From the NCBI GenBank assembly GCA_045837725.1, contig JBEWZL010000209.1:62001-126000 (forward strand): DNA of 64,000 nucleotides. The letters are read 5' to 3'. Shown in pieces: positions 9,401 to 64,000 of this stretch (position 1 is the first letter of the stretch; each line of letters opens with the position of its first letter). Below the pieces are notes generated by a model. It had not been told where the DNA came from and did no database searches. It saw only the letters and a program-made list of their open reading frames with translations. A program made the translations under genes and the position numbers. Source of the stretch: Vermamoeba vermiformis (taxonomy: Eukaryota).

Positions 9401-10321
9401 TTTGCAATAATTTATCAGCCCCGGCATTAATATTTCCTAATTAGGCTGTTTTCTTCTGGTTCTCAGCGATCGGCATGTCAATTTGGGCTGGAAAAATCTA
9501 CGAAGACATGCCCGAATTGATCAACACCGAATTTGCAGCCATGAGTCTGTGGCGCATTGGGTAAGTTAGTCTTTGCAAGTATTTATCGGTGCTAATTGAT
9601 CTATTTTTAGCTTTAACAACGTCATCGAGTCAGCTGCAATGTTGTTCACGCTAATGACAGTCAATAACTGGCACTGTATGTCCAAGACCTCGACGGAAAA
9701 ATATTTGCAATATTAACGCGCTCTATATTTAGTGCTCGCTGCTGCTCATGAAACTGTCTCGACACCATTCGCGTGGATCTACTTCTGCGTGTTTATTTTC
9801 TACGTGTCCACGGTGATGATGAGCGTCGTGTCCGCCTTCACAGTCGATGCATTTGTCGTGCAATGGACGATCATCAAAGACCGCACTAAGAGCCCCGTAC
9901 AGCTGCGCATTGAACAATTGAGCACGATTTAGTAAGTGACACCGAGATGTCAAAAATGACACCTTGACACGTGTCAAATGTTGTGAAGTGTCGTGTTATT
10001 GACCTGTTTGTTCACAGTCGCGATCAGAACTCGGACAAAGAAGGCATATTTATGGACCAAGAAGGCGAGCACAAGAGAGTTTGGACCGTTATTCCCAACT
10101 ACAACATTTTCCAACTGACGCGCACTGTCATCGAAGAGGGTGATCTCGAGTCTGCAAATGAAGAACTGCGCAAGAGTGCTGTGATGAATATTAGCAGTGT
10201 GATTGGCAATCAGCTCTTTGCGAACAATTTCCCGCCCTCGCCACTCAGCGGCAGTCCTCAAGTTCAAAGCAGCATCAATTTGTCGAGCACCCCGCCAAAT
10301 GATTCACGGTCAACTTTTTAG
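6458..10321 (+). CDS. TPC: Two-pore cation channel (TPC), many short exons
   Basis: Two 6TM repeats with S4 motifs (YLRIGQYVRPFF; LLLLRVLRLAKWF), pore loops LFVLFNLANYPEVM and LFTLMTVNNWH, an inter-domain EF-hand (RRAFDMLDPKGSGII) and an N-terminal EPLL dileucine signal. Confidence 0.9.
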
Positions 10322-10412
10322 TGAAACAAATTCAATGTCTCATTTCTTGTAATAAATAGTTTATTTTTCATGTATAAATGAACCTTTATTGGTTACCAGT
10401 AAACGCACTCGA

Positions 10413-12126
10413 TCATTCAAAGGCCAGTTTAGTCAATCCACGCAATTCGTTGCTGTACTTGTGAGGGTTCAGAACGCTCAAATAAGTCAACTGTTTCAAG
10501 TTCGTCAACGCCACGACATCGCGCATGGTAATCATCGAGTTCTTGAGATCTAAGTGCTCAAGCGCGGTAAGAGGTGCGAGCCAGTCGAGCGTCTGATAAT
10601 CAAACTTTGGGAGGCAGATGTGCGTCAAGCGAGTCAAGCACGATAAGGAATTCGATTCGAACGGCTCGTCAAAGTCCAATGTCAAATGGTTCAGATTGGT
10701 CAAGCGAGCCACATCTGCAATCGCATCGGTATTGAGTTTTGTATTCAATTGCGTATTGATTTTCGCATTCAATTGTTCCAAGTTTGTCAGGGCAGTCCAT
10801 CCATTCATCGTGTTGCTATTGGTCAGGTCTGCGTGTAATATCTTCAATCGTGTCAATCGTTCAACAGACTTGCACTGTGCCTTGACCAGCACGAGACGTG
10901 TCAAAAGTGTCAAAGTGTCAATGCCTCCAACGAGCACTACTGTGGTTGAGTGGACTTGCAACGCCTCTAATCGCGTCAATCGCGTCAATTCATTCTTGAA
11001 CATGCTCGTATTGTTAATGCTGACGCTGAGTTCTTTGAGCAGGTGTGGCTTGAAGTGCTGGATGCACTCTGCGTCATCGCGCGTAACTTGTAATATCGTA
11101 GCTGAGACTAGTGGCAGTTTTGATATGAATGATATCGCCTTGACGAACCTATTGTCAGTGTGGCTGATGCTGAGTACTTTCAGTTTTGTTAGTCTCGAAT
11201 AGCTCGACAGATCCTCGGCTTCATCAGGTCGGTGGTGGCCAAAACATCCTTTGCTGAGCTCTAATCGCGTCAATCGCGTCAATTCTGACACGACAGAGGG
11301 GTGTATTCGCGACTCCATCGTGAGAGACTCGAGTTCGGTCAGGTCTGGCAACTCTTCGGAGAAGTCACCGCCGCCATGCACTGTCAGTACTTTAAGGCGC
11401 CGCAAGTTTGACGTGTCAATATGACGTGCAAACCAATGCATGTGCTCGAGGACTAATTTAGTCAAGTTTGTCGAGTTTAACTGCAGGTCATCCGGAACAT
11501 AGGTGTCTTGGTGACAGAGGTGCAGCTCTTCGAGGTTTGTTAGATTGGTGAGCTGTGGACTGGAATCAATGATGTTAAGGCGCGTCAGATTATGAAATGA
11601 GTTTAAGGCCTTTGTATTGGCGGAGCGCACATCCAAAGATTGCAAATTATTGAGCCTTGTTTAGAGCGATAATGCGTCTGACGGGTGTTTCAATTCAGCA
11701 ATATTCAAGCGGTAAATATCTAAATGACTCAATTCTGCGAATATTTGTAAGAGATTCGTCGTCGCTGATTTTTTTGCTGTATTTCTTATTTCGATCGAGA
11801 TGTGGCGCAGGTGACGTAGCGGTTTAAGAACTGAATGGGCATTTTCTGGTTGTAGATTATAAAATATAAATCGCTTATTGCTTATTACTGCGAAGTACGT
11901 ATGGCAAGTTGAGCGCAAGGCCAAAGTTGTTTTTGGATCTGCTAAATTACCAATGTGTGCTATTATTTCCAAGGGCAACTCCTTAATTATAAATAATTAT
12001 GTTAATTTTAAATGTAATTATGAGCGAAACGCTATTGGCGTCGGATCGCAAGGAGCGACTAAAAATGACTTCTGCTCTTGTGTAAATCAATATTGAAATA
12101 ATGTACATATTATGCCAACATACCAT
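10413..12126 (-). pseudogene. F-box + LRR protein interrupted by an in-frame TAA (probable pseudogene, or a sequence error)
   Basis: ATG-only exon 12126-12124, intron 12123-11982, then ELPLEIIAHIG (F-box) and LTRLT-type LRRs. TAA at 11663-11661 lies between two same-frame ORFs (..ALSL*TRLNNLQSLDV). Paralogue of 19859-21610. Confidence 0.7.
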
Positions 12127-19845: not shown

Positions 19846-19858
19846 GTAATAAAGGTTA

Positions 19859-22609: not shown

Positions 22610-25600
22610 TTAGTTGTTTGTGTTAGTATTGTTGTCCACGTGCGTATCTTCAGCAACGTCCTGCGTCTTTCGCTTCTTATTCTTCTTGTTCAATTTCTTC
22701 AAGTTAGTCGCGAATTTGCTGCGCGCAATCTTGCTTCTCAATTTCAGCAAGAAGTCGCGCTCACCCTTGCTTTGCGAGAACGCATAGCCAGTAACTAATA
22801 GAAATATGAATAAAGGTGGTGATTAATAGAAGATGATGGTAGCTTACACTTGAAGTCTGGATCAGCTTCAGTGAAGTTGTTCTTGACAGTGAATGCTTGC
22901 AAAGTCGGCTTGCGAGTAGCTCTCTTGCGTGAGGGTGGAGGGCCTTGCGTGACTTCCACGGGGATCTTGTACTTTCTGATCTCTTGCACGATGTGGTGAG
23001 GTCTCGGGAAGAACGTTCTTCGGATGCTGTAACCGATATATTAGTGCTGTTCAATACGAACAATAAGGTTACGTACTATTGATTAAAAATGTCGGGAACA
23101 AGACCAATGGCCACGATAACGACCAATGTTAGCCAGAAGCTCGCTGTGCCCATGATTTCTACGGCCAAGTAGTTCTGTTGCGGGGTCAAATAAATGACCG
23201 AGTAGACCAAACAGAACGCGACGTAGACACCGAGACTGGCCCAAGTGAGCAAGTGATTGATCCAGGTCCAAGTTCTAATCTCCAAGGCAATCTTGAATGT
23301 GACCATGAACACGACGCAAGTGATGGCCAAAATACCGAGATCAAACCAGCTGACTGTACGACCGTTGCTGTACATCATACCATCGCCCAAGGCTTGTTTG
23401 GTCAAGAAGAAAATGATCACTGAGTGGAAGATTCCCTCGCCAATGAACGTAATGAACTTCTTGATGGAGAACTGGTGACACGTGTCAGTAATTCTACGTC
23501 AATATGTCGTATACTCGACTTACAGCCTCGTTGTTCTTCGGTTGGCCAGAAGCGTACAAGAGCGGGAATTTTTGCGACAATTCGCTGCTCGTGTCTTGGT
23601 CTAAGACTGAAAGGCCGACAATGGGCAGCGAAGTGAAAATGACGTTGTAGACTGTAATGTACCACGAGTCATAGTAGGTCTGCAGATGTCGTTAGCATCG
23701 ATGCATGTCAAAGCTAATTCGCAGCACTTACGTGACCAGACCAGCCGTCGTAAATGGAGAGCCAGAACTGCACCATGGAGAAGGTCATGTTCTTGTAGAA
23801 CGAGTACAAAATCAACATGCAAATACGCTTGTACGACCAACGACCGTGCACCAACAAGAGTTTTTGAAGGAATCTGAACTGGGCAATCGAATAGTCACTG
23901 GACAGCACGGCCTGCATACCCTCTTGACCACTGATACCAACACCTACAGAGTCGTTAGGGCAAGATATAATTGAAGTTGATTGAGATGTTGCTCTTCATA
24001 GACACAACAAGTACACGAGCATTCACTTGTTGTCGGTCGAAGAGCAATAACAAAAAATAGCTAAGTTGATAAACATACCGATGTGAGCTGCTTGAATCAT
24101 GCTGACATCATTGGCACTAAAAAGGAATTGATATTAATCATAAGAAGGTATTTTTGATTGAAAGGAACATACCCGTCACCAATAGCCAAAGTACGAGCCT
24201 TCAAACCGTTCTTGACGAGCTTGACCACATCGGCCTTTTGTTTCGGACTGACGCGGCAGCAGATGACCGAAGAACAGTTCTTGGCGACTTCTAACAGCTG
24301 CCAGCAATTGCTCTCGTGCAAGCCGTGTTCGAGGGCAGCACCGTTGATGACAAGAGCCCACTCCGACGAGCCTTTTGCTTTTTCTTCACGAAGTTTGGCA
24401 AGAGCGCCGTCAATTTCTTGACGCACGTCTTCTTCAGTCTCACCGTTCATAATGATCAACTTCATGTCTTCGAACAACAACGAGCATGCGTAGCCAATGT
24501 TGATGGCTGTTTCTTGCTTGTCACCAGTCAACACCCAGATCTTAAGATTGGCTTGGCGGAGGTTGTAGATCGTGTCAGGCACGCCTTGCTGCAGCTTGTC
24601 TTCAATGGCAGTGGAGCCGACCAAAGTGAAGTCAACTTCAATCTCTTCGGCGATAGCGTCCATAGCCTTGTCACGGTCAATAAGAGTCACTGAAGCCTGT
24701 TGATATTTAGCAGCCCACTCCTGATAAGTGGCATCGTCCAGCTCTCGTGAAGCCAAGCACAAAGTACGCAAACCATCGTTGGCGAACTCTTCAAGCTGTT
24801 GCCAAGTCTGTTCGAGGAAATCACACTTGACCTTGTTGCTCAAGCGCTTTTGAATAACACTGTCAGCACCCTTGACGAGCACTTTGACCTTGCCCTCAGG
24901 TGTGCGCACGACGACTGACATTCTCTTGCGGTCACTGTTGAACTCGTTGACTGCCAAGATTTCGAATCGTCGATCTTCACCGTGCACTTTAACCACAACT
25001 GAATCAATGGTACGAGTCTAATAAAGAAATTAATAATAGTACTCGTTATGTTGAAAAACAATGAGGCGTACGTGGAAATAGTGACCCATATAACGGGCAG
25101 CAGTGACAAGAGCAGCCTCGTCGGGGGAAGAAGCTTGGTACTTGACTTCACCACCTTCAGCTTCTTCGGGGATGACAGTGTGACACACGGACAAGATGGT
25201 CAAAAACTCTTCGATCATTTCTCTGCGCTCGGGGTTTTGCAAATCAGCCAAGAACTGCTTATCCTTGAACGGGAATGTGGGCTGAATAAATTGAGTGATT
25301 AGAAGGCGTTACGGTGAAATAGTTGCAATGCTTACAGGAGCGCCAGGCAGAGGTTCATCATCGGGCAAGGGAGGCAATTCACGGCCTTCACGCTTGGCTC
25401 TGTTGATCGCAATCTCCGTGTAGCCAGCACCGTACGTGACACCAGCAATGTTGCACTTCATAAAGTCCATACGATTGCACGTCAATGTGCCCGTCTTGTC
25501 GCTGAAGATGTACTCGATTTGTCCCAATTCTTCCGACAAGTTCGACGTGCGTGCATTAGCTGGCGTGTCACTCACAGGGTCGTACATCTCAATGTCACCG

Positions 25601-29702: not shown

Positions 29703-32273
29703 ATGAAGAGGAACCTCAACTTAGCGTATATTGCGCTAATTATTATATTTATATTTATTATTGCCGGTCAGGTTACCGATGGCGCAGAATATCCGTCGAG
29801 AATGTTCCCTGCTCTCGCGTTATCAAATTGGAAGTCCTCTGTATTATTGTGGGGAGCTACGAGGGATAACGCCAATCAAATGCCATTCAAGTGCGTTGAC
29901 TAATTGCTTATTGATTGAATATTAGATAATTATTGGCTTTTTTTTGCGATCTGGAAAATAATTCATTGAATATAATTTTAATTCAACAGACCACTAGGCG
30001 TTAATTCACTACGCATTGCAGACGATTATACAAAGAGCGTATTATCCGAGGACAGTTTTCTCATGCAAATTGATAACAACGTGTACGCTAATGCATCTCG
30101 GTGGGACGGTGATGTTGTCTTCAACGCTCGAGGTAAGCGGTGCCATTTAGATTAAATGTTAAATATAATTCATGAAATGCGTTTATTTATCCTTTCTATG
30201 TTTAGAGGGCGGGATCTGCACTAAAATCAATAACTATGGTGGATCAACCTTAGCGGTCGATATCGAGCAATGTTATTATTTCCCGCCACAAGAGGACTTT
30301 TATATTGTTAAATATCATATTAACAACCCTTCGTTGACTCAAACACGCACGATCCAGCTGTTCGAATACATTTCAACTCCGGCTTGCGGACAAGAGCAGC
30401 AACAACAGGGAGAATATGATGCGAACAACAATTGGGTCACTATTAATATGAATAACTGTGGCGGATTCGTATTGAGATCAATTCAAAGTCAATCGGCCAG
30501 TCAGATCCAAGTGGGTCCTGTCACCGGTCAAAATTCGCCGCTGCAACAGTGGATCCAGAGCCAAAAATTGAACGACGATACTAAGGCTCAATATAACGCA
30601 GTAAGCAGCTATTATTGTGACGCAATTCAATGTTCTAATTGATCGCCATAGCTGTCATTTGGAAGTGTCACGAGTGTCAAAGTGTCAAACATGTCATCCA
30701 CTGACCTCTATTTCATTCGATTCGCTGGTCGTGACATGAGTGCCGTTAACTCAATCTCGCAGCGAGCTCGCAGCCAATCACCCAAGTACTGGGTCCAACA
30801 AGCACGTGACCGCTACAACGCGTGGCTGAGTGCCGCACCTGTCCCGCCAGTGCTGAGCAACAATCCTGACGCGCTGACACTCTACACGTCCTCGCTGTTG
30901 ATTCTCAAGAACGGCTTGATGCCGAAAGTCGGCACGATTGTCGCGTCGTTCCATCCAGCCTATGGCTACAAGACGTGGGGCCGCGATGGATTGTTTGCAG
31001 CCATGGTCCTCGATGCTGCGGGATATCAAGATGAAGCGGAACAATACTTCCTGTGGATGGCACAGTACGTTCACTGAAACTTTTATTGCTGTTTATTTGA
31101 CACGTGTCAAAACAGGGCTCAACTGCGCGATGACGGAGGCTTTCACACCTGTTACGATTGGTTCACTGGCGGACCTGTTGGATTTGTCGAGCCTCAATTT
31201 GGTACGGCAATTCAATTCATGAGTAATTCCGTCGTGACTAATTATGGTAATTATAAGACTCCGCTGGCGCCTATTTATTGGCAATCTATCGCCACTTGGT
31301 GATCACGCCAAATGTCTCAGTTTCGTTTTTGAACGCAGTGACCCCTCGCGTGCGGCAAATTGAGGACTTCTTTTTGAAGAATGTTGGTGCATTCAACTTC
31401 GCGCCAGCTGATTACTCGATTTGGGAAGAAAGCAGCAACGGCCTCAACGGCCAGGGACTGCCGGTAAGTACTTCAATCGCGTGACTACGACGCTCACATT
31501 GCACCAGACATCGTACTTTACCTTCACGCAATCGATGGCCTGGGCTGGACTTGTTGCAGCCTCCAAGCTCGAAAACAAAGTGTTCCACGACAATCAACGC
31601 GCTCAATCGCTCAATCAACGCGCTGCACAAATCAAATCAGCCGTTGAAACGAAGCTGTGGATTGCCGATGAAGGCTATCTCGCTCGTTCAGTGAATTCAC
31701 AAACACTCGAAGTGGACCCTCGCCCCGACAGTTCATCCATGGCCGCTATTTACCTCGGCCTCGTGACTGACGCGCGCAATCAGTCCTCGCACCACTCAAT
31801 GGTCACTGCCAACTTGACGAGACTCGACGCGGGTATTGCGCGCTATTGGGGAGATCCGTTCTTTTACAACTCCATCTACAACCCTGGCGGCCAGGAAGTC
31901 GGTGCTGCCTCGCCCCCTTGGTACGCGTTGAATGGCACTAGTAGTAAGAATCGTGACTGATGTGTTTGCAGGGGAGTCGTCACCATGTTCACGGGCTGGG
32001 CCGAGTTGTTGATGGGACTGCGCGATGAGACACGCACACGTCTCGAGTGGATGGTCAAGTACGCTGCTCCTGGTCCACTGCCTGTGGGTGAGGCCATTGA
32101 CGGTGTGTCGGGCAATTACGTCATGACCGCGAGGTACGTGCTGCAGTTATTCAATCACTTGATGGTTAATTTTTATTTGCAGTCCTGATCTGTACGAGCA
32201 CGGTGGAGTGTTCATCCTCGGGGCATTATTGTACGATAATTTAACACCACCTTTGGGCCCACTGATGGTATAA
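29703..32273 (+). CDS. Secreted glycoside hydrolase family 15 (glucoamylase-like), multi-exon
   Basis: Signal peptide, YGYKTWGRDG, EPQF|DS, DYSIWEE, RYWGDPF and PVGEAID. Confidence 0.8.
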
Positions 32274-46923: not shown

Positions 46924-49489
46924 CTACGTCTTCTTTTGCTTCTTGTTGCGCTTATGATTGAGAATGGTGTTGTAATTGCTGGTGCCATCACGAATCATCG
47001 CAATGTGTCGGTGAGCCTCGCTGCTGCTGTCCTCACTCGCACTCACTTCAATGCTCGCTGAGTGTGGCGGGGACGGGTCTGAGCGCCGCAAGTTGTCAAG
47101 GGACATGCGCTGGTGCAGCAACATCGGGTCAATAATTGGATCGTCTTCCGGGTCTATCAAGTTGTTATTAGGCCCTGGTCGCGGTGTCTCGTCACTTTCG
47201 TCGCTGCTGTCAGGCACTTCAACCACCACTGGCGCGGGCTGATTGTTGTTGTTGCTGTGCACATTGCGATTGCTGGTGGACCGGACATGGCGATCAATCA
47301 CGTAGTTGCGTGTCGGTTCAAACACCGCCATGGCCTCACCCTGCGGCCCCTCGTCATCACTCACTGCGCTGTCACTGCTACTCGGAGTGTCGCTGCTCGA
47401 TTCAACACTGCGTTCAATGCTCTGACTAGGACGACTCGTGTCACGTGATGCTCTGTCACGGCGAGTGTTGCGCGTGTGATTGGTCGAAGGTTCCAGCACG
47501 ACCTCACTCTCATCATCGAATACAACGACATCGGGACGGTTCCGATTGATAGGTGTCGCGAGGGGGTTCATGGCTGCAACACCTGCTTGGTGGATGTCCA
47601 ATAGCATAGTACGCTCAGCAGCTGCACTAATGCGCAGTGAGTCTAAGGCACGCAAGATAATGAACAGAATGCAGGCCCAGAATGTAGTCCAGCCTAGAAT
47701 AACTGCAAAGGCTAGTAGCTGCATGGCCAATTGATTTCCTGTGCCCTCTGTAAACAGTCCTCCTGTGACACGTGTCAATACAAGATTGACTATCGAATGC
47801 TCAACATTACCTCCTCCGACAGCAGGACGCAAATACACAGCCTCGATCTTGTCCGAGACTGCAAATAAACCAGTGGCAATTAGGCCCCACGAGCCACCGA
47901 AGAAATGCACGACTGGATGTAACGATTAATATTCATATTAACAAGTTGAATGTAATGGCTGCGTATTACCTGAGGCCTCAAGTGGATCGTCAATCTTCAG
48001 TCTGATCAGCAGTTTGGCTCCCCAGAAGTGAATCACTGAGCCGACAATGCCAATCGCTATCGCTGCCCAGGGCTGCACAAATGCACAGCCAGCAGTGATG
48101 GACACGAGACCAGTCAGAATGCCGTTCAGTGTGACGGGCAAGTTGTACTCTTTCATGATCAATCGTGCTTGAAACAGCGACGTGCAGCCTGCAATAGCTG
48201 CCGAGAGTGAGGTGTTCAACACGCTGATAGGAGGTTAGTGCTGTACTCTGTTTGACACGTGTCAAATGAAGTGTCTTACACTTTCGAAGCAATCGACGAG
48301 CCACCTTGATCGAGTCTCAAAATAGAGCCGCCGTTGAAGCCGTACCACGAGAACCACAAAATAAATGTGCCGAGCGTCATGAAGGCACTGTTGTTCGGCG
48401 CGAATTCGTTCTTGCGCTTGGGTTCAAATCGCTCCATGCGAGCTCCGACCACTATGGCACCGACCAGGGCAATTATTCCGCCAACCTATTTATAGACCTG
48501 TTAGCCGATGTTTCAGTGAATTTCATTTAGTCACGTGCCATATGTACGACGCCGCAGCCTGCAAAGTCGAGCACTCCATTCGCGTAGAACAAGTCGCTGA
48601 CGGGTTTGTTGGCTGTCAACCATCCTGTGACACGTGTCAATGAGTGGCCCGTATGAAATCATATCTAGCTTGTGCAACGTACCATCAGTGGCCCAGATCC
48701 AATGTGCCACCACAGGGTAGATCCACGCACTGCTGATGAAAGTGCAGACTAAATAGGCGCGCAGTCGAGTGCGCTCTAACAAGCTGCCACTGACTAATAG
48801 AGGGTCAGTGTATATGCTATGACTATTGAACACTACAAATAACGTGCCTATAGTGGCTGAAGTAAGCGAGAAAGTCCACTGAAAGAACCACGTGGTGTAA
48901 CTGACTGTCGTAGAGTCTTCAATGCCGTACAGTGCGAAGTAAGTGGTGCCTATGAATGGATTGCCTAGCATCGTGTGAGCGAACAATCATTTGCTAACTG
49001 TTTAAAGGCGGAAAATTACCCGTTCCGAAAGCAAATCCGAATCCAACCAACCTAATCATTGAAATTAGCATTCTTATATCATAATCATTTAATATGCACT
49101 ATACGTACCAAAATGCGACCGCTCCGATGCATATTGTGACAGCTTTCTGGATTTTAAAATAAATTAATATTGAAATCGGTCCAATATTAATCATCTCGAT
49201 AATATTTACGGAGTATTATCGCAGAGGCGCTTTAGTAAGTAATAATACTTACCTTTAGTAGTACTACTGTTGAATTCAATAATCGGACCCCTCCGACTTC
49301 AACTAAAGTAAAGCCAGCTTGCATAAAGAAGATGAAGCAGCCTGTTATTAATATCCACGCTATATTTAAATTTTCTGCATCCAAATCATTCTCGTAGCGG
49401 AGTTCTGAAACGGAGCGATTGAGATAGCCAATAACTGCTTTAAGCTCGTCGATTTGAGCACTGAGCTCGCTGATTGTTGGTGCGCTCAT
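46924..49489 (-). CDS. amt: Ammonium transporter (Amt/Mep) with a long disordered C-tail, multi-exon
   Basis: FFMQAGFTLVEVG, FFQWTF, YPVVAHWIW, DFAGCGVVH, NGILTGLVSITAG, IDDPL and HFFGGSWG. Confidence 0.93.
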
Positions 49490-50360: not shown

Positions 50361-51734
50361 CTACAGGAGTCTGAAGGTCAGACTGGAGGCAATGAACAGC
50401 GCACCAGTGGCCACGAGCACTGAGCCCCAGAATGCCTTGCGTTCAGTCTCTGGCCGTGTGCCGAGATCAACGAGCAGTCGCTCCATTTGATACGAGACGA
50501 CGCGCTGCACGAGAGTGAAGGGAATGATCTTCAAGTGATTCTGCACCACACCCTTGAAGATGCCACTCACGCCTTCCTCTTGCAAAATATCTGCAATGCC
50601 TTCCCACGTGCCTTTGTACGCGAACTGATGACCGGCAGGGAAGATTGTGCTTTGAATCTGCAAATGAGAGCGTCGTTAGAGATCACTGTTTGACACGTGT
50701 CAATCACGTACCTGCATGCGCTTCTTGATCAAATCGAGCGGGTAAGAGGCTGTTTGCGCGACAAAGTTGGCACCGACCCCTAGTCACGTGATCAGTTCAT
50801 TAGTTCACTGAACGAGAGCTATATTTAGTATCACGTACAGATGGCAAAGTCCGCAAATCTGTTGCCGCGGCGATTGAATTTCTTGGAGAGCCAATTGTAG
50901 AGCAGCACTGCACCGCCTTCATAGGGCACTACGGCGAGCACTGCTGGCAACACGCCACCGTAGAGACCTGACACCTGTCAACGTGTCACTTGCCTGCTCG
51001 TGTCTTACGCGTCATGCAACTACTTACACCTTCTTCTTTGACGAGACGAGCCATGCCAGTCCACGTGCCTGGAGCGAGATACAGCGTGAGATATCATTAC
51101 TATAAAAGGAAATATTCGCTCAATGTACCGTGGTAGTAGTCGCGCCAGGGCTGCACAGTCAATCTGTTCTTGATGGTGTCGAATGGGTGCGTGACAAACA
51201 CTGCAATCATGCCAGCCAATATTCCCTAATTAGGAAATAATTGAGCACGTTCTCACTGATACGTATTGAAATAACTTACGACGACATTGTGATTCTTGAA
51301 TACCGACCACATGGTTTGCGATTGCATCACCCACATGCGCGTGACCAAAAATGGAATAAGACGCCACACTGCCGTGCCGTTGCCTTTGAACCAAAAAAGG
51401 AAAGGGTTCTCTTTCAGTAACGCGTCTTTGACTGGCTCCGTGGCCCAGATTGTCTGCAAAAATACGATTAATACGGGTCAATACTGCTGACCATATAGCC
51501 ATTTAATATTAGTGCGCATTTAATACCGTTTTAGCGCTCTTGTGCACGGCAATAATGATTTTTGCTACATCCAGCGGACTGGTGATGGTGCGGGCTGAAG
51601 ATCCGGCCACAAAAGAGCAGACCAACATCTCCCATCGCTGCAATGGTCTTCCTATGAATTAATAGTCGTATTAGTGACTATAGGGCGTAATTTGTGTCGT
51701 AATGAAACTACAACTTCGAATTTACACCGTTCAT
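50361..51734 (-). CDS. Mitochondrial carrier (SLC25) protein, multi-exon
   Basis: Three PxDxxK motifs (SPLDVAK, HPFDTIKNRL, YPLDLIKKRMQ) plus YKGTWEG..EEGVSGIFKG. Confidence 0.85.
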
Positions 51735-52077
51735 TGAATTTAAAATGAAATATATATTATTTAATAATAATTTTTGGCTTGATATTATTTGGGCACCATA
51801 GTTATATTGCTCTTTTCATTAAAATTCCGTATCGTAATTTTTTTGGGAGCTGAAAATCTTTTTGTCGCATTTTGTTATTGGCTATTTAATCACGCTGTAA
51901 TTTGCAGTCCTAAATTACATATTATATTTGACAAATAAAAACTACTTACTGTTCGACATGGCCACGTGTGTCTGTTTGAACAAATAAAATGAAATATTTC
52001 TTATTGTTTTCAATTTCAATTTTATTGACGCAGCACACGGCACAAAAGGTTAACTATTAGAGTTCAACTGATATATA

Positions 52078-55000
52078 ATGCCACTTCACGAGGTCGGATG
52101 TTGTACGAAGCACAAGTTTGCGCACGAAGGTGAATCTGGTGAACAGCAACACGAGAGCCAGAACAGCTCTAGCAAGGGCTTTACAGTCACCAATCCCGAG
52201 AAGCGATATGCGCCGCACTTGCATATTGAACCCAAGCACTTGGACATCACTATTGACGCTGCACAACTGGAGCAGAAATTGGTTGATATTCAATTGACTT
52301 ATTTACTCGAAAATAACACTGTTGGTGCCTCGACTATTACTTTTAATGGCATAGGTACGATATAATACCTTTCTCGAGCTTTCTGGATTTCTTTACCAAT
52401 TTTTAATTTGTCTACCGCTTCTTAGAGCAATACTAGTACTAAACACTTGACCGTTATGTGAGTATACTTATAATTACTAGATTTTGCGGACATCAAGGTC
52501 AGCGGTGAGGGCAAGCCAGACTGGTAAGACGAGTGTAGTTGCAATATTGCCTTTAATATTAATGTTGCTATCTTAGGACCTATGACGGCAAAGAGCTCCA
52601 AGTTTGTTTCAGTGAACCATTCGGCGCTGTTCATGAACGCCGATCACTCACCATCTCGTATCGAGTGGCGCATCCACTCGTTGGCTTGCACTTCTCCGTG
52701 CCCAATGATAAATATCCGCAAAGACCTCTGTTCGCCATGACCGGTATGCGCTTAATTTCCTTTTATGGCAATGCTGACTTGCCGGGCCCAATCAGATCAC
52801 GAGACCGAGAAGGCGCGCTATTGGCTGGCATGTGTCGACTATCCCACTGTGCGCACCAGTCTCGCGTACCACATCACTGCCAAAAAAGGTAAAGTCGTTG
52901 CCAAATATAGTCATTGTGTCTCACACTGGCAGGACTGGTCGTGGTGGCCAATGGTGTGCACGAGAAGGACGAAGAGCTCGATGTGACACGTGTCACTTCG
53001 CACTGGCGACTCGAACAGCGCTGTCCGTCGTACTTGATCTGCTGGGCTGTCGGGGACTTCCAAATTGGTCAGTATTGCCTAATTAGGCTATAACGTACTC
53101 ACACCGCGCAGAACACGACAAAGACGTGCACGGCATTCCCATCGCGTACGTGGCCCCGAAGAATGTGTCACGTGATGTCTTGCGCAGTTCATTTGCAGCC
53201 ACGCCTGCCATCATGAATTTCCTCGAAACCAGACTCGGCGTGCCCTTCCCATTCCCCAAGTACTATCAGATCGCTGTCTCTGGTGTACTCGGTGGGGCGA
53301 TGGAGTACGTAGTTTGACACGTGTCACTCGCAGGTCACTAACAGCCGTGCCATTCACAGAAACATCAGTTTGACATCGTGGAGCGTGCTGTTCTTGTGCG
53401 ACGAGACCTGGGCCAAAGAGTTCCAACTGTTCACTGACGAGGTCAATGTGCACGAGATGGCGCATTCCTATTTTGGTGACAGTGTTGTCATGCGCCACTT
53501 CGAACACGTGTGGCTGAAGGTACAGCTCCAATAATAGCATTGAATGCAGTGCGTAATCCTCATTAGGAATCCTGGGCGACATATATGGAAAGTGTGTGGC
53601 TCGAACAGCACCGCGGCGACGATGAATTCCGCTACGAAATGTACACCAATCTGCACTCGTACGTCAGCGAGACCAACAGCTATGTGCGTCCAATGGTTGA
53701 GCGCCGCTACGACCACTCGTGGGACATGTAAGTGGCACTTATTGCCTTATTTGGCAAGCGTACTGACCTGCGTTAGGTACGACTCTCACACCTACCCTGG
53801 CGGTGCATGGCGCATTCACATGTTGCGGTGAGTACTGTGGTGGCACATGTCAACACGTGCACTGACTGCTCGTTCATGAATCAGCCGTCAGTTGGGCGAT
53901 GACGCGTTCTGGGCAGGTGTCAAAGACTATCTCACGACATATGCTGGCAAGGTGGTGGAGACCGATGACTTCCGCAAGTGTCTCGAGAAGTACAGCGGCA
54001 CCAATCTGACCAAGTTCTTCGACCAATGGTACTAATTATAGCGCATGTGAGTCCGCTAATTGCCTTATTTAGGTACTACTCGGCAGGATTCCCGAAATTG
54101 AAAGGCAGCTACGAGTTCAAAAAAGAGACCAATCGCGTCAAAGTAACGCTCGAACAGACGCAAGTGGACGAGAAGACTGGCGTGGCACTGTTTGACATTG
54201 CACCGGTCATTGAGCTCGTGGACGAGAATGGCAAGACATATCGCGCGACTGTCGTGTTTGAAGGGGCACGTGGCTCAGTGGTGGTGCAAGTGGACAGCAA
54301 GCCCGTGTCGGTGGTGGTGGACCCTGACTACGCGCTGCTGCACACACTCGACTTCAATCCCGGCACCGAGCTCTTGAAGCACACGCTCGTGCACTCTGCG
54401 TCCATGCCACACCGCGTCTGGGCTGCGAAAGAGCTCATCAAGGCACGTGCACTGTAGTCGTAGCACTCAGCACTAACAGCTTCATCCTGCAGCACGGCAG
54501 CTATCAGAGCTTGCAAGCAGTGGATGCGGCCATGAAGACGGAGCAGTTCTACGCGGTGATTGGTGAAACTGCTGCGGCCCTCGCCAAGTCCAAGTCACCC
54601 TTTGCGCTGGATGGTACGTGTGCGTGATTGATCGATACGCGTATTAATGGTGATGTGCAGTGCTCGTCAATATCCTCGCCAACACGCAGCTCGTCAAGGC
54701 ACAAGTACGTGACACAATACAATAGTGATGCTACTGGTACTCATCTCTTATTGTGACCGCGCAGACTATCTCCACACTCGCTGCAATGTCAGTGCGTCAT
54801 CCCAAGATCAGAACTGCACTCCGCGACTACTTGACGCGTACTAACTTGCCCTACCGCGCCACCGCTCGTGCTCTGAATGGACTCGGCAAACAAGTGCGTG
54901 CATGCATTGTTATTGGCACGCAATTACTGACCACTTGTTGACAGCGCAATGAAGAAGATGTGCCGCTGTTGATTGAATGGGCACAACGAAAAGACGTGCT

Positions 55001-55675
55001 CCACGGGTACCACGCCATTGTGTTGTCGGTACGTGAATTCATGAACGAGATGTGGTGTGCTGAGTGGTGTTGATAGGGCGCTATTCGTGGCTTGGGGGAC
55101 AGTCAGTCGCGCAAGGCCTGGGAGTACTTGTACCACGCTGTACGTGACACGTGACATGTTGACAGCTGCATTGACACGTTGTTGCCTAATTAGGTTGATG
55201 AAGGTGTGTTGCCTGAGCTTGCACGTGTTGTTGCCATTGAAGCCCTCGGTGAGATCGTAAGTGTCGCACAGTTGTCACGTGATCGGTGACTGACACGTGT
55301 CCAGAGCAAGATCGACGAGCAGTGCAAGGAGAAGGCACGACTCAAGCTAGAACAGCTGTTGATGGAAGAGAACTACGCTGTGCGCAAGAGTGCCATCACC
55401 GGTAAGCACTGACAGACCTGCCAATGACACTTTGACACGTGACTGATTGACACCTGTCAGCCCTCGTGACACTCAAGGCCTCCAGCTCGAGCAGTGCCAT
55501 CAGAGCCGCCCTCATCTCGCACCAAGATGCGCCGTGGCTGCAACGCAAGCTGAAGACCTTGTCCGAGGCCAAGAGCGGCGAGGAGCTGAAGAGCGAAGTG
55601 AGTGACTTGACGGCCCGCGTCAGCGAGCTCGAGAAGAAGCTGCAGCTGTTGAGGGAGAACAAGGCACTCAACTAG
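52078..55675 (+). CDS. M1 zinc aminopeptidase with C-terminal HEAT-like repeats and a coiled coil, about 18 introns
   Basis: GGAME|N, HEMAHSYFG..WLK|ES (HExxH-x18-E) and YPGGAWRIHML. Confidence 0.9.
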
Positions 55676-55759
55676 TGTTCGGTGACAAGTGATTGCGAGT
55701 AAATGCTCTTAGTGTTCTCTCTTATTATGGCTATTTTTATGTACAAAGTTAATTACAAA

Positions 55760-56681: not shown

Positions 56682-56808
56682 GGCGTATGTATAACTGTTA
56701 ATAATTGCACTGAAGGTTGACTCGTTCAGTTTTTATTGACAGCACGTGGCTGGTTCAACAACAGAAATTTCCCGAGTAAAGTGTGATTGCATGCTGGGGA
56801 TTGGTCAG

Positions 56809-58065
56809 TCAGCGAATCTCTGTTCGATCTCGTGAGGGGACACCATTGGACACTACTGACCAATCCTCGTCAAGCCACAGACTAGCGACACCTATCGTAC
56901 TCCAAGCGACACGTGTCAATCACCATGCCTATTCACTACCAGGCTTGCTACAGCTCGTGCCAGGTGCCACCAGCTCAGCCAGCACGCGTGACTCGGCATC
57001 AGACCTGGCACCAACGAGCTGCAGTTTGGCGCGCTGTTTGAACACGGTGCTCATGCGCGGCTGTTCCGTGAGCACGCGGTGAACAGTCGCTGGCAACAGG
57101 CCACGTGTCAATCGCGCGACAGTGTCACCGAGTAGCACGAGACAGATCGATCGGTCACGTGGTCCTGCGCGCCAATCACGTGTCAGTGGACTGTAGATTT
57201 CGAGGCCACTCTCACTGGTGCCAGGGATGAGCGTCAACAGCCCTGCTGCGCATGAGTGACATTGCCCAATTAGGACATTCATCGGACGTACCTCCGTCAG
57301 TATGCGGCACACAGCCCGTGGAGTGCGGTCGTGTGTAGTGAAACACATTCAGACAGCTGTTCGACCACGCACTCGAGAGCGGATCTAGCACTTGCGACAC
57401 GAGCTCTGCGGGCTCTGACGGTGATGACGTGTCGGTCACATGATCGGCAGTGAGATCTCCAGTCACGTGATCACCGTGCAGGTCAGCAGTCACGTGTAGA
57501 TATCGCTCTACCAGGGCCTCAAGACACGTGCGCGCAATGGCCTCGAACAAGAGATAGACGCGCGTACTGATCGCAGCGAGTGCTGGTGAGGGCCAGGCGG
57601 TGAATGCAGGCACGTGACGGATCTGCAGTGAATGATTAGATGGTTGATATATTTGATATGTGACTGTTGGATAATGATTCTATTCGCTGAACGGAAATTG
57701 AATTTCAGATTTTAATTGATTAATTATTTGAAAATAATAATATATACAATAATATTGTCTTAAATACGCTCGTAGTTAACTACCTGAAATGTCTCTTTGA
57801 TTCCTCGACTCGCCATGTATCCAGCATCGTACTGCGCCTCAAAGTGCTGTTCCTTGCGCTCCTTATCCTCGTTGAAAAACAGCTTTGAACTCGCGCGCAG
57901 CTGTTCGAGCAGGTCCACGGCTACATCTGGCAGTTGTAACAGCGCATAGCCTTTGTGCTGCAGTGCAAAGTAGAACTGTTCGTGATCATCTGCGAGGGTG
58001 ACATTAAAGGGTTGTATATGATTGTCAGCCCTAGTCTCCACGGTGACCTTGAGTGGTGTGTACAT
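56809..58065 (-). CDS. 2OG-Fe(II) dioxygenase (IPNS/DIOX family)
   Basis: DIOX_N-like ALQHKGYALL..LFFNEDKERK; HTDG|GLLTL, GDTVARLT..ATVHRV..RMS. Confidence 0.85.
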
Positions 58066-58132
58066 CTGTTTGTGTAAATAATTGTAATTACCACGAACAC
58101 ACCGCAGTAACAATTAATACTGTACTATAGTC

Positions 58133-58841
58133 ATGGAAAAGGCACAAAAATACGCAGAGGGTGTTATCAACGACCCTGTAGTCGAATTCGCTTGGTAAGT
58201 GCCGAACTGAGATCTGATCGAGTTGATCGCGATCTGAATTGACGAATAATTGCGTATTAAATTAATTGCGTAAATAATACGTAATATTAATGGCCCACCT
58301 AAATTAATATCAAAATAATAATTATTTTTTAACGTTTGTAAAAATATTAAGCACGTCATTGAGCTAATACACCCGTGAACTATAGGGCTGAAGTTGCAGC
58401 TAAGCACGCTGAAACACACTTCAAGCTGTTGACTTCATTCGCGGACAGTACGAAGCTCAATCTGACCAAACTCGACGATGAGATCTACAAACACTTCCGA
58501 CAGGTGAGTTAGAGCGTGATCTTAGCGGTAGATGTATATACTAACCCCTGCACTATTACAAGGTATTCCCTGAATTGCGCGTGGATGTTTTGGACTATGA
58601 CGCGATGAAAACAGATGCAGCTAAATCTGAGTGGCGTGACTTCTTCAAGCCTTACGAGCAACGAGTGCATCAATTCAACTTTGCGACGTTGTTGCGCGTT
58701 AATAGCAGTGATGAAGAGGGCTATTGGGAGAAGAATACGATCATTGTCCCGCGGATTCAGTTCTTGGCCATTGAAATCGCTCGTAACAAAGAGGGCCACA
58801 ATAAGAAGTTATATGATACATTACAAAGCAAGAAGCAGTAG
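58133..58841 (+). CDS. PBDC1: PBDC1/YPL225W-like protein, 3 exons
   Basis: NDPVVEFAW|AEVA, LTKLDDEIYKHFR, KSEWRDF, FNFATLLR and VPRIQFLAIEIARNKEG. Confidence 0.88.
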
Positions 58842-59114
58842 ATAAATGCGGTCACTTGTGTAATTATTAAGCGAATAGTCGCGTGTGGTGGGATCGATCG
58901 AGTTTTATTTTGTTACAAATCTTTAAGATTGTGATTAGGCAGTACCTTTCAAACTGCGTGCATCCCTTAATATACCTATAGCCGATTAGTACTGTTGAAA
59001 GGTGTCTATTCAAGTTCGGAATTTACTTTCAGTTGTCGTTTAAAATTTGGATGCAGGACCTCGAGTGAAGTGCGGTGAAATTGATTTTATTACGGGCGAT
59101 AGTGCTATATTCCA

Positions 59115-61420
59115 ATGAATAAGAATAAGGCCAACACTGGCAATAACAAGCCTAAACAGGTATCACTAAACTAAAAAATTATAAGTCCATTTCGAAATCT
59201 GATTGAATAGTAATTTAATAGTTATTATTTAAATTAATCCTATTAATGGCGATATATGCGCATTTAATTGTACCATAATTAATAATTTTCGTCTTTGATA
59301 GCCCACATCCAACACAAAATCAACCAAGCCAAAAGAAGCAGCAAAAAAATCAGCCACAACCACGTGCGTGTATTTACAGCCCTATTAATTATTATATGCT
59401 CCGAGATATTTATATTTGATTTCGATAAAGCTATTGAAATCTACAGATATTTTCGAGTACAAAAGCTGTGCCAAATTTAGTAACACATTGATTCATTGCA
59501 GAACTGCAAAGACTGCACCGAAGACAGCCAGTACAAGTGTCAAACCGACGCCTGTCACCAGCACCACGGCCAGTGCGAAGAAGACACCAGCAACCAAACC
59601 CAAGGCAGCAACAAATGTCAAACCCCCGCCTCCAGCTGTTGAGACTAAAAATAGCGCTGAGAGTACCACCAACGAGAACAACACAAATGTCAAAGTGGAG
59701 TCACCGCCGAGCAGCACAGACAAAGTTGAGGTGAGTGTCAAAGCGACACCTGCCGCGCCGAAGTCCAGGTATGTAATTGACACGTGTCATAATCGCACCA
59801 CCGCAGTCGAGACTGACATTGACACCTGTCAAAGTGCCAAAAAAGCACCTGCAGCAACAGCGAAGAGCAAGACGAGCACTGCCACTGCCAAGACGAGCAC
59901 GACAAGTGTCAAAGCGAAGCCTGCAACCACAACCACCTCCAAGACAAGTGTCACCAAGCCACCTGCACCGACTGCCAAGACCAGCGCTGCCAAAGCAGCT
60001 GACAAGAAGCGACCAGCCGCGACAAGTGTCACATCGAGTGTCAAATCCAAGCCCGCGACCACGACTTCCAAAAGTGGCAAGAGCAGTGCCAACACATCGA
60101 AATCGAACAGTCGTCAGAGCAGTCGCCAAGTGTCACCGAGCAGCACGGTCAGTGACAGGTACGCACTGGTCTATATTGCCCTAACACCACTAATGACACG
60201 TGTCATTGCAGGTCAAAAGTGTCACACGAGACACCTGACAGTCACGAGACACCAGCTGGCACACCCAATGACACGCCTGAAGACAGCGTGACACGACCAC
60301 GTGCCAACACGACGTCCCTGCGCGACCTGGTCACGGTGTTCGAGTCCACCGCGCAGCTCATTGCCGCGAGCACGCAACCTCCTGAGAAATCTCCGCGGAG
60401 ATCAAGTGTCAAATCGTCAACGCTGCGACAGCTCAGCAAGAAATTTGAGCGGGAAAATGAAGACAGCACGGATGATCTCCGAAAATATCTCAGTCTGCGC
60501 CACCTGGACGCCTCATCGGAACTGCTCCGATCTCCACACGTGACTGAAAATATTCCGCTGCTGTTGTGGAGCAATCACGTGACAGCTGAGCACGTGGTGT
60601 CGAACGATCACGTGCTGGTGACAGCGACGAGTGAGGAGTACGTGACGGTGTGGGACCTGCTCGAGAACAAGTGAGTGTTGCGTCTATATTTGGTTCTTTG
60701 CACTTATTAACTTGATGTGTCAGTGCGCACCAGTTCAGTGGACATACGAGTCACGTGACGGGCATGGCACTGGCAGCCGAGGGCGATCAGATCGTGACGC
60801 TGAGCGAGCACGAGATACTGTCGTGGCGCGCGAGTGACTGTCACGTGACTGGTCAGCAACAACTGCGCGCTGATCTCGTCGCACTCACCTCCGACGGAGC
60901 ACACGCGGTGACAGCTGTCAATGCCGAACTCACGCTGTGGACGGGCGAAGAGCTCAAGCCCCTGAAGACAATCTCGCACGGAGATCACGTCACGTGCTTG
61001 ACCATGTGGCCGCGCAGTGCGGGACAATTGCTATTTATAGTCACTGGATCACGTGATCGCGCCATCAGACTGTGGGACCTCGCAACAGGCGAGTGTCTGA
61101 GCACGATTGAAGACGCGCACCAGGGCCCCATCACTGCACTGCGCGTGCTCTCCCAGGGCCGTCACGTGATCTCGTACTCGGCACGTGATCAGCACGTGAA
61201 GATTTGGGAACTGGACAACAAGGAGTGCGTGCTGCAACATCACGTGACTGAACCCTGCACGCGCACCCTGATCAAAGTGGTGTCAGACTGGAGTCACGTG
61301 ACTGCGCGCGAGAGTCAGCAGTGGGACGATCTCCTATTGGCCACCGAGATTCAAAATCTCAAACTGCAGATTGGACTCAGCGAGGGCTGCTGTTGCATTC
61401 TGGTCAGCGACGAGTTGTAA
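59115..61420 (+). CDS. WD40-repeat protein with a Lys/Thr/Ala/Ser-rich N-terminal region, multi-exon
   Basis: VTGSRDRAIRLWD, AHQGPITAL..VKIWE and low-complexity KPATT repeats. Confidence 0.75.
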
Positions 61421-61591
61421 ATTATTATTAAAATATCCTCCCTGTTAATACTGACCACGCGCTTGTTCTCGTTCATGAACCGTCGCGCACGTGATTTGTC
61501 ACGTGGATTTGTGCCCTGAGGGACTTGTTCGCTTCCAGAATCTACTTTTGTTGCCTCACCGAAGTAAAGACATCTATATTAACCCTTTATA

Positions 61592-64000
61592 ATGTCCGCT
61601 CTCGGTGCTGCGAAGATAAAGCTCTTTTTAGCGAATCTTGTGGATCATTACAGCAAGAGTTCAGTGAGCGCTAAAAACAAGTTCAGTGGTCGTCAAACAC
61701 TCCTCGGCACTGGCTTGGTATTGTTCGGCGCTGTAGTGACGATATATAAGAGGATTCAATTCAACAAAGTTAAAAAAGAGCGAGAGATCGAAACGACTAC
61801 GAAGATCACACCAGCTACCAAGCAAAATAATAAGGTGAAAGTAGACAAGCTATTCTTTAAGAGATTGGGCGATATTTTGAAGATTATTGTGCCCTCGTGG
61901 AAGTCCACTGAGGCCCTACATCTGATCGTCTTGACTATTCTCTTGTATTCCCGCACTATATTGAGGTATGTATGCACTAATATATGAACGCGTCGTATCG
62001 ATGTACTGTCATGTCGGAATAACGACTACGGGCCATAGTAAGGCCCGATAAATGACACATCTCCATTCAACCGTCACTAACGCTTGAATCCAGCATTAAA
62101 GTCGCTGATATTACTGGCAAGAATGCTCAATACATCGTGCAGAAGAACTTGAAGGACATATTCTTGGGCATAGTGCAGTTCGCGCTGATTGGTGTGCCTG
62201 CGTCGCTCGTCAACAGTGGCTTGCGTTACGCAACGGATTCGCTGTCGTTATTGTTCAGAAAACGACTGACCGATCATGTGAACAACGAGTACTTGAAGGG
62301 CACTAACTTCTATAAGGCCTCCAACTTGGGCGGTGAGAGCAGAATTGACAACGCGTAAGTAGCGGATCTAACCTTAGAAGTGCTGTTCGAACCAGATGAT
62401 TGATGCGTATATAGCGATCAACGAGTGACAAGAGATATTGAACGTTTCAGCGAGTCATTGAGCTCATTGTACGCGACTATCTTCAAGCCATTGTTGGATG
62501 TGATCTTGTTTACGTACAAATTAGCTCTCGTGCTAGGTCCTCAAGGTCCTGCGCTTATATTTACTTATTACTTCTTCAACGCACTCGTCAAGCGATTCTT
62601 GATGCCCGCCTTTGGTAAAGTAAGCAAAGTCTCGAATAATTTTTAGATCTCGGATATGCTCTCGAGAGGAATAAGAAGCTAATATAACGCTCTTATTAGT
62701 TGACGGCGCGCGAGTCAGAACTCGAAGGCGACTATCGCATGGCACATCAACGGCTCATCACCAACAGCGAGGAGATCGCGTTCTACGACGGCAGCAAGCG
62801 CGAGAAAGAGATCATTTCGCGCCTATTTATGGGCGTCTATCACCACGCCAACTACTTCAACCACCTCAAGTTCTTGGTCGGCATATTCGACGAGTTCTTA
62901 GTCAAGTACGGTGCGAGCATCATTGGCTATGTGATCTTAGCGCTGCCCATCATTCAAGGTACGCCGTTAATAGGCCCCTATTCATATAGAGCTCTATACT
63001 CACCTCACACAGGCCGCACTGGCTCCAAGACCACCGCTGATCTCACGGGAGATTTCGTCCGAAATAGGCAATTGCTGATTTCACTCGCCAAGGCCATTGG
63101 TCAGCTCATCGTGCTCTTCAACAAAGGTACGTGTTTGACACGTGTCGCCAGTACACCTCCGCTCACTTGCCTTATTTAGTCACCATGCTCGCGGGTCTGA
63201 CAGCACGTGTCGCGGAATTACTCGAAATGGTCAAGACACTTGAAGGCGCGGGCAATGCTCCGTTTGAACTGCGCGATGATGACACGCGTCAAAAGGTGAC
63301 TCAGGCCGCACCCGAATCGCAGCCTGCTGACGTATACAAACAAGGTAAGTGGCACTTTGACACCTGTCACTCGACCAATGGCTAATGATACGTGTCAGAC
63401 GAGCACATTGACGCGTGGCTTGCCTCGTTCAGTGAACGCAAAACAGCGCAGCGAACACGTGTCATTTCGAATCCTCCAAGCGAGGCTGAGCTGCAGCAGT
63501 TAGCCGCGTCGAGCAAACAGCGCGGAGTGTTGCTGGAGGGCGAGCTGATCAAATTCATGAACGTGTCGATTGTGTCGCCTGAAGGCAAGTTGTTGGCACG
63601 TGACATGTCATTTGAAGTCAAGCGCGGTCAGAATGTCATCATCACTGGCCCCAACGGTGCTGGCAAGAGCAGTTTGTTCCGCATTCTCGTACGTAGCACA
63701 CGTGACACTTTGATGCAAACCACTGGTTGACACGTGTCACAGGGTGAACTCTGGCCCCTGCACTGCGGTGTAGTGGTCAAGCCGCGCAAAGAGGACGTTT
63801 TGTTTGTGCCGCAAAAGCCTTATTTGGTGTTGGGCACTCTGCGCGATCAGGTCATTTATCCGCACAAAGGTCAGTGTTTGACACGTGTCACTTGGCAAAG
63901 ACTAACCCATCATTGCAGAGGTTGACATGAAGGCAGCAGGAGTGACAGACTCGGACCTCGAACGACTGATGGACATTGTGGACCCTTCGCGCACCATCCT
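61592..64000 (+). CDS. ABCD: Peroxisomal ABC half-transporter (ABCD/PMP70 family), continues past the window end
   Basis: [21 protein letters not shown] (EAA-like), [14 protein letters not shown] and PQKPYL. Confidence 0.93.

Follow-up and report, generated by a model that had tools for sequence, protein, structure and literature searches.

Why should one perfect palindrome recur, letter for letter, inside the short introns of unrelated genes? The question is raised by a 64,000-nt stretch of a Vermamoeba vermiformis assembly (GCA_045837725.1, contig JBEWZL010000209.1, positions 62,001 to 126,000 of the forward strand; the window hereafter), which carries many copies of TGACACGTGTCA, 12 letters with perfect dyad symmetry. 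This 12-mer is real, hugely over-represented, restricted to introns and found at two preferred positions within them. We tentatively read it as a lineage-specific cis-element of very short spliceosomal introns that is linked to splicing and whose copies at the 3′ end may double as branch sites. Introns of about 50 nt must mark their borders with very little sequence, by means that are poorly known outside yeasts and animals.

The window contains 13 perfect copies of TGACACGTGTCA, and not one of 100 dinucleotide-preserving shuffles contained any. When up to two mismatches are counted, the number of sites rises to 38 (3.6 expected), since 11 copies have a single mismatch and 14 have two; the 11 one-mismatch copies are scattered over the 36 possible variants, and the perfect copies are at least as numerous as all of these together. 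The half-sites TGAC and GTCA separated by four letters occur 21 times against 1.5 expected, four being the only enriched spacing, and the spacer reads ACGT in 13 cases and ACCT in five, the remaining three being singletons. The unit is therefore one specific 12-mer with one recurrent centre variant. Around it the sequence carries almost no information except a T at -1 (flanks at most 0.5 bit), and a palindrome longer than 12-14 bp was rejected on that account.

The host is, as judged from protein similarity, an amoebozoan: a 739-aa Hsp104/ClpB frame at 1450-3669 (-) has its best named relatives in Dictyostelium, Heterostelium, Planoprotostelium and Physarum (72-75% identity), besides environmental matches at 97% and 76-77%; the amoebozoan therefore belongs to none of these four genera. 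RNA evidence was taken from transcript contigs of a closely related strain (X5) and from low-depth reads (X21-X23), aligned to positions 44001-64000. These runs match that part of the window at 95-99% identity, and related strains with a few percent divergence therefore exist. Fourteen GT..AG introns were defined by RNA (15 of 50 joints), 12 of them 47-73 nt long and the others 181 and 298 nt; introns are typically about 45-65 nt. The 5′ splice site is GTAYGTG, with a G at +7 in nine of the 14 RNA-supported introns as read by eye, which suggests an unusual U1 or U6 contact, and CTAAY, CTGAC or TTGAC stand shortly upstream of the AG at 3′ ends.

Further introns were predicted with a purpose-written finder of spliced open reading frames, trained on the 14 RNA-supported introns, of which it recovers 10. 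Signal-only self-training of the intron matrices was dropped after it drifted, giving 186 candidates against 125 in the reversed sequence. The catalogue comprises about 80 introns, including three hand-checked additions, and covers 4,847 of the 64,000 bases (7.6% of the window). The acceptor matrix of the predictor spans the last eight intron bases and might favour motif-bearing ends; copies with at most one mismatch have a similar frequency in RNA-supported introns (4 of 14) and in the short introns of the catalogue (15 of 77). Pfam support was assessed exon by exon and short exons gave no match, so the ABC-transporter introns are supported by prediction plus two reads. The sites, with the evidence for each intron, are as follows.

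9965..9976: perfect copy, mid-intron, 33 nt from the 5′ end of a predicted 86-nt intron, 9932-10017 (+); prediction only. The intron abounds in TGACAC/GTGTCA half-sites, and no other motif intron has a fold z-score near -2.
23476..23487: perfect copy in a P4-ATPase (flippase) gene, intron 23472-23523 (-), 4 nt from the 3′ end; Pfam continuity (PhoLip_ATPase_C profile positions 60-106 and, past the intron, 110-240).
31098..31109: perfect copy in predicted intron 31065-31115 (+), 6 nt from its 3′ end; prediction only.
47766..47777: perfect copy in an ammonium transporter gene (Ammonium_transp match), predicted intron 47763-47813 (-), 3 nt from the 3′ end; weak RNA hint, an X5 contig alignment ending at 47764.
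48253..48264: perfect copy in the ammonium transporter gene, predicted intron 48224-48279 (-), 15 nt from the 5′ end; prediction only.
48628..48639: perfect copy in the ammonium transporter gene, intron 48625-48682 (-), 3 nt from the 3′ end; Pfam continuity (Ammonium_transp profile 65-136 and 159-220, with a 25-aa exon between).
50691..50702: perfect copy in intron 50658-50711 (-), 9 nt from its 5′ end; RNA joint 50657>50712 in X5 and two X21 reads.
50969..50980: one-mismatch copy, spanning the 3′ splice site of intron 50975-51027 (-); RNA joints in X5, X22 and X23.
52984..52995: perfect copy, outside predicted genes and introns, possibly coding (open frame D-V-T-R-V-T); no Pfam match.
53315..53326: perfect copy in an M1 aminopeptidase gene, intron 53305-53359 (+), 10 nt from the 5′ end; Pfam continuity (Peptidase_M1 profile 10-39, with 51-95 starting at residue 10 of the following exon).
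55145..55156: one-mismatch copy in intron 55140-55193 (+), 5 nt from its 5′ end; RNA joints in X5 and X21.
55291..55302: one-mismatch copy in intron 55257-55304 (+), 2 nt from its 3′ end; RNA joint in X5.
59778..59789: perfect copy, ambiguous; 9 nt after a GTATGT, with uncertain intron boundaries and a 300-aa frame open across it.
60194..60205: perfect copy in predicted intron 60159-60211 (+), 6 nt from its 3′ end; prediction only.
63136..63147: one-mismatch copy in a peroxisomal-type ABC transporter gene, predicted intron 63127-63179 (+), 9 nt from the 5′ end.
63358..63397: two one-mismatch copies in predicted intron 63345-63398 (+), one 13 nt from its 5′ end, the other 1 nt from its 3′ end.
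63728..63739: perfect copy in the peroxisomal-type ABC transporter gene, intron 63689-63742 (+), 3 nt from the 3′ end; RNA (two X23 reads skip 63684>63742).
63879..63890: perfect copy in the peroxisomal-type ABC transporter gene, predicted intron 63870-63918 (+), 9 nt from the 5′ end; prediction only.

Eleven of the 13 perfect copies lie in catalogue introns, one in predicted coding sequence (59778) and one outside predicted genes (52984), giving 2.3 per kb in introns against 0.03 per kb elsewhere (two in the other 59 kb). Non-genic or unannotated sequence, which amounts to 29.8 kb, holds one perfect copy against 11 in 4.8 kb of introns. A preliminary description of this DNA had listed 13 perfect copies and named seven with one mismatch, all of which are present where it placed them; its figure of 12 perfect copies in introns is about right (11 and one ambiguous). 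As it also stated, the host genes are unrelated and lie on both strands. They comprise flippase, glycosyl-hydrolase-like, ammonium transporter, mitochondrial-carrier-like, M1 peptidase and peroxisomal-type ABC transporter genes.

Position was surveyed in the 77 introns of 44-100 nt, which contain 16 copies with at most one mismatch in 15 introns. On the 5′ side the offsets from the first intron base are 5, 9, 9, 9, 10, 13 and 15 nt, and on the 3′ side the offsets to the last intron base are 1, 2, 3, 3, 3, 4, 6 and 6 nt, with one further copy in mid-intron. Copies thus form two clusters, 9-10 nt behind the GT and 1-6 nt ahead of the AG, and at both ends the palindrome abuts the splice-site consensus from the intron side (the consensus taking up about 9 nt on the donor side and about 3 nt on the acceptor side). 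Such an arrangement might arise by chance, from base composition or from independent position-specific preferences for branch-site and 5′ splice-site words, given that TGACAC and ACGTG are both words that the splicing signals favour. Against this, shuffling the columns of the first or last 22 intron bases among introns yielded a mean of 0.000-0.003 copies (2000 trials), where five and eight are observed. Independent preferences of the splice signals therefore do not produce the motif; these shuffles, together with the 100 dinucleotide shuffles devoid of copies, refute the chance explanation at the level of the 64-kb window, leaving it a negligible probability. The two preferred intron positions claimed previously are supported.

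The arrangement is replicated outside the window. A search of metagenomes with a pattern representing the donor arrangement returned 13 loci, from which four non-redundant ones totalling 25.8 kb were used (L001, L002, L004 and L010). None overlaps the window; they score well with its coding model and have the same tiny introns, and they were taken to belong to the same or a related amoeba. L006 and L005 were left out as 99.9%-identical duplicates of L001 and L002 that carry no conservation information, and L003, L007, L008, L009, L011, L012 and L013 were excluded from the counts as probable chance matches or unrelated organisms. Beyond the four copies selected by the pattern itself, the 25.8 kb contain seven further copies with at most one mismatch, where about 0.06 are expected. 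Five of the seven lie in predicted introns and repeat the two positions known from the window, at 9 and 5 nt from the donor, at 3 and 9 nt from the acceptor and, in one case, across the acceptor. Both the 12-mer and its intron arrangement recur on four independent environmental contigs.

Do the motif introns form a repeat family? Introners and introns derived from miniature inverted-repeat transposable elements (MITEs), as in Micromonas, Aureococcus and dinoflagellates, often have inverted ends and target duplications. The palindrome introns resemble them in being many short introns of unrelated genes, on both strands, with common sequence near either intron end; they differ in that Introner copies are alike over their whole length, whereas the palindrome introns share 12 bp and have no boundary repeats. 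Once the motif is masked, the mean local score is 5.5 (maximum 10) among the 21 motif introns of the window and loci, compared with 6.7 (maximum 16) among 77 others; motif introns are no more alike than other introns, as expected from the earlier statement that the remainder of each intron is not homologous. Direct repeats at the intron boundaries are not in excess, the longest averaging 3.0 in 15 motif introns and 2.3 in 62 others (p = 0.10). The similarity limited to 12 bp and the lack of excess boundary duplication rule out an Introner- or MITE-derived intron family. The preliminary description had named a longer transposon or Introner family as the finding that would speak against it, and only the 12 bp proved to be common.

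The same data bear on the idea that the palindrome is self-propagating or repair-driven, in the manner of the cyanobacterial palindrome HIP1, or is the core relic of an old intron-generating mobile element, tolerated where it is harmless. Perfect copies as frequent as all one-mismatch variants would fit copying or biased correction, and G+C is higher in motif-rich regions. Two longer identities also fit: the ABC-transporter intron at 63870 has a 21-mer, GTCAGTGTT plus the motif, in common with the intron 177-231 of an unrelated gene on L010, and the motif plus AACAGTGA is common to window intron 50658 and L001 531. The idea is opposed by the masked scores and boundary repeats just given and by flanks nearly free of information beyond the T at -1, and it leaves the +9/+10 position unexplained. 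Nor are CpG-deamination neighbours specifically depleted, since CATGTG/CACATG stand at 0.48 of expectation and other neighbours are equally low. The 12-mer has the exactness far above expectation that marks HIP1, but not its spread irrespective of coding status, 11 of 13 perfect copies lying in the 7.6% of the window that is intron. We regard this explanation as improbable.

What then does the palindrome do in introns? In motif-less introns TGAC outnumbers its complement GTCA by 32 to 7, GTGAC outnumbers GTCAC by 16 to 0 and CTAAT outnumbers ATTAG by 16 to 3, and yTrAy words have their maximum 14-20 nt from the intron 3′ end. This strand bias and this peak identify TGAC(AC) as the branch-site word of the host. 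In the eight copies at the 3′ end, the A of TGAC stands 10-15 nt from the intron end on the sense strand, which is branch-site distance, and four of the six perfect ones have no rival yTrAy word at that distance as judged by eye. From their sequence and position, the 3′-end copies probably serve as branch sites, in agreement with the earlier proposal that TGAC could double as a branch point. An AC after TGAC would lengthen the duplex with U2 through the GU that precedes GUAGUA.

Two observations on these words were made in passing. GTGAC is the most strand-biased intron 5-mer, with 16-21 sense and no antisense occurrences in the window and the four loci, and it is spread along the entire intron rather than confined to the branch position. 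A second palindrome, CCTAATTAGG, has four copies (9436, 51225, 53078 and 55185), three of which form intron 3′ ends; at these three ends the branch-site word CTAAT overlaps the TAG acceptor (CCTAATTAG/G, the slash marking the splice site), implying a very short distance between branch point and AG.

Each copy on the 5′ side has a normal branch site downstream, often ACTAAC. Their CACGTGT core is complementary to GTAYGTG and could pair with it. For copies at offset 9-10, the predicted accessibility of the 5′ splice site is 0.27 (n = 7, two of these introns having been ascertained by the metagenome search pattern) against 0.39 in 75 motif-less introns (one-sided p = 0.04). In the splicing-linked reading that we tentatively favour, the element would be placed as near to the exon as the splice-site consensus permits, on either side. 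Its 5′ half, (Y/G)TGAC(AC), would be the branch-site word of the host, with the A of TGAC, at 10-18 nt from the AG, as the presumed branch point of the 3′-end copies. The +9/+10 copies, directly behind the extended donor GTAYGTG, might fold back on the donor via CACGTGT or, alternatively, hold branch-site factors beside U1 in intron-defined genes. The near absence of the palindrome outside introns and its anchoring to splice sites at nucleotide level argue for a splicing link. Enrichment at intron borders, as looked for in an intronic splicing enhancer, is present, and an effect on splicing is putative.

A number of observations weigh against this reading. Motif introns show no excess of RNA folding (mean z -0.25 against 0.11, p = 0.23), for want of which an RNA hairpin was rejected, and Rfam returned no RNA family in the window or the four environmental loci. 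The 12-mer is constant whatever the donor (GTCAGT, GTATGT or GTACGT), and without co-variation with the individual donor a cis hairpin is unlikely to be the selected feature. yTrAy words are scarce at +10 to +19 (four in 76 introns). The 5′ copies can therefore not be taken simply for spare branch sites that do no harm, and the idea that a spare branch site is safe near the donor was rejected. A branch site needs the left half alone, yet the right half, GTGTCA, otherwise avoided in introns, is kept exactly; an exact GTCA half and a 12-bp symmetry are typical of double-stranded DNA sites for dimers, and the splicing reading leaves the exact conservation of the complementary half unexplained. 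The motif is absent from 81% of short introns and is thus not a general splicing requirement, and the majority of the introns come from the predictor. Finally, CACGTG, the core of the palindrome, occurs 36 times in coding sequence against 13.5 by synonymous-codon shuffling, and two cores (61488 and 61500), next to a TTCATGAA palindrome, precede the following ATG by about 100 bp.

Alternatively, the 12-mer might be a double-stranded site for a dimeric factor of the E-box/G-box type (bHLH or bZIP) acting inside gene bodies. The full site could then occur in introns only, and the tolerance of the splicing code would set its place, either on top of the branch site or just behind the 5′ splice site. 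The perfect 12-bp palindrome, with TGAC and GTCA enriched at spacer 4 only, suits such a factor. So does the core: CACGTG occurs 87 times in the window, and in 47-64 kb, where 59 are counted for 11.4 expected, no other 6-bp palindrome is as enriched. Its density per kb is 4.1 for introns, 1.3 for predicted coding sequence and 1.0 for the remainder. Genes with many intron palindromes also have many exon cores; exon cores have symmetric flanks and are above synonymous-shuffle expectation, and the pair upstream of an ATG fits as well. The right half is retained even within an exon: the centre variant TTGACAG/GTGTCA (slash at the splice site) crosses the acceptor twice, in the RNA-supported window intron 50975-51027 and in the L010 intron 177-231; in both, the variant itself supplies the AG, a point for the splicing reading, and its right half is exonic. 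Preservation of the complementary half inside the exon implies recognition of a duplex type, and strict palindromy together with the enrichment of the E-box core in exons argues in the same direction.

Other properties fit such a site poorly. Non-genic or unannotated sequence has its single perfect copy, positions are fixed within 1-2 nt of splice sites, and 13 perfect against 11 one-mismatch copies is stricter than is usual for transcription-factor sites. The palindrome has the CACGTG core and dyad symmetry of an E-box or G-box but not the promoter location, one of 13 perfect copies being outside predicted genes. Exon cores have T/A flanks and the intron palindrome A/T, and one factor would not obviously read both. 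We therefore consider a dimeric DNA-binding factor possible but doubtful. The CACGTG core probably also has a meaning at DNA level. The 'gene-body DNA signal' of the preliminary description is one possible reading: palindromy and the exon-enriched core favour recognition as duplex, whereas restriction to introns and anchoring at splice sites favour splicing.

The exon cores are best seen in a WD40 gene at 60.3-61.4 kb, which has 15 CACGTG, nine of them as in-frame His-Val codons; its two open frames contain 6 against 2.6 and 8 against 4.1 by synonymous shuffles. The flanks of these cores are symmetric, RTCACGTGAY (T at -1 in 9 of 13, A at +1 in 10 of 13), unlike those of the intron palindrome. 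A search for orthologues of this gene returned generic WD40 proteins at no more than 36% identity. Over the WD40-repeat gene and the following spacer (60298-61500), there are 16 CACGTG in 1.2 kb.

Other palindromes and half-sites were recorded in the window. TTCATGAA has nine copies (3709, 7462, 30169, 38734, 52630, 53873, 55038, 61472 and 63554) and, counted on both strands in 47-64 kb, 10 against 0.6 expected; one copy stands 9 nt after the donor of intron 55029-55076, which RNA supports, and another belongs to the spacer before a gene that starts near 61592. Two large intron-less leucine-rich-repeat genes, at 10413-11660 (-) and 19859-21535 (-), encode a recurring L-T-R-L as TTGACACG..., which scatters palindrome half-sites through their exons, and AATCGCGTCAAT occurs four times within 10969-11283. 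Half-sites and near-copies (TGACACGTGACT, TGACACCTGTCA and several TGACAC) are dense at 55400-55470, just beyond a plus-strand gene model ending at 55412, in what is probably a 3′ untranslated region or a spacer between converging genes.

Self-complementary copies might also pair in the pre-mRNA, within an intron or across an exon, drawing splice sites together and leading to exon looping, back-splicing or regulated skipping. Two perfect copies flank exon 63743-63869, one 3 nt upstream of it and the other 9 nt downstream, introns 63345-63398 and 63689-63742 have the element at both ends, and an intron with a 3′-end element is followed by one with a 5′-end element in four of five cases, compared with about four of 12 otherwise (hand count over four genes). 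That association is not significant and is confounded by motif clustering in certain genes, only a single exon has a perfect bracket, 14 of the 15 motif introns have one copy, and no circular or skipped joint is found among 15 of 50 RNA joints. We think pairing between copies very unlikely. A broader version, in which the palindrome is read as a duplex at exon borders, either by a dimeric protein that couples chromatin to splice-site recognition or by pairing of the copies that bracket an exon, seems to us rather unlikely. If true, it would provide a eukaryotic, intron-anchored counterpart of the highly iterated palindromes and a new layer of intron or exon definition in organisms with tiny introns.

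Whichever of these readings holds, a 12-mer present in about one-fifth of introns unites a branch-site word with its avoided complement and stands anchored at one or the other splice site. It might point to an unknown splicing factor or small nuclear RNA contact, a DNA-binding factor at exon borders or a sequence drive in transcribed DNA, and its exactness makes it a simple genomic marker for the lineage in metagenomes. In the accessible part of the open literature, subscription journals excepted, the 12-mer appears only within primers of two Ebola papers, and that part yielded no account of a CACGTG or palindromic intron motif or of Introners in Amoebozoa, nor of an iterated palindrome in eukaryotes. 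The earlier remark that no eukaryotic equivalent is described agrees with what these openly available texts on intron palindromes, Introners and iterated palindromes contain. The element is a new, exact, intron-anchored palindrome and not an Introner.

Four known systems invite comparison. HIP1 (GCGATCGC) is reported to be distributed over coding and non-coding DNA of cyanobacteria and tied to known methyltransferases (PMC4390886, PMC13756078). Like it, the amoeba palindrome is highly iterated and exact, with a CG-containing core and perfect copies far outnumbering near-misses; unlike it, the 12-mer is confined to introns and anchored to splice sites, whereas HIP1 is spread over the genome. 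With E-box and G-box elements, including the plant ABRE-type GACACGTGTC, the palindrome shares the core, the same inner 10 bases and a dimer-type symmetry, and this inner 10-mer occurs in plant drought and promoter papers. Those elements are degenerate and located in promoters, whereas the 12-mer is intronic and stands at fixed distances from splice sites.

The other two systems belong to introns. McCullough and Berget reportedly described G triplets as intronic enhancers at the borders of small vertebrate introns, with pairing to U1 small nuclear RNA as one proposed mechanism. They too are short elements near both ends of short introns that are thought to enforce the borders, but they are degenerate, strand-specific and non-palindromic, while the amoeba element is one exact 12-mer. 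Introns of Giardia and Trichomonas have a fused branch-site and 3′ splice-site motif, ACTAACACACAG, a conserved 12-nt block with the branch point. There the branch point is followed by AC, a few bases and CAG, and the 3′-end copies of the palindrome similarly read yTGACACGTGTCA(C)AG. The palindrome differs in being present in about one-fifth of introns, in standing also at +9/+10, in its perfect symmetry and in that it may enter the exon.

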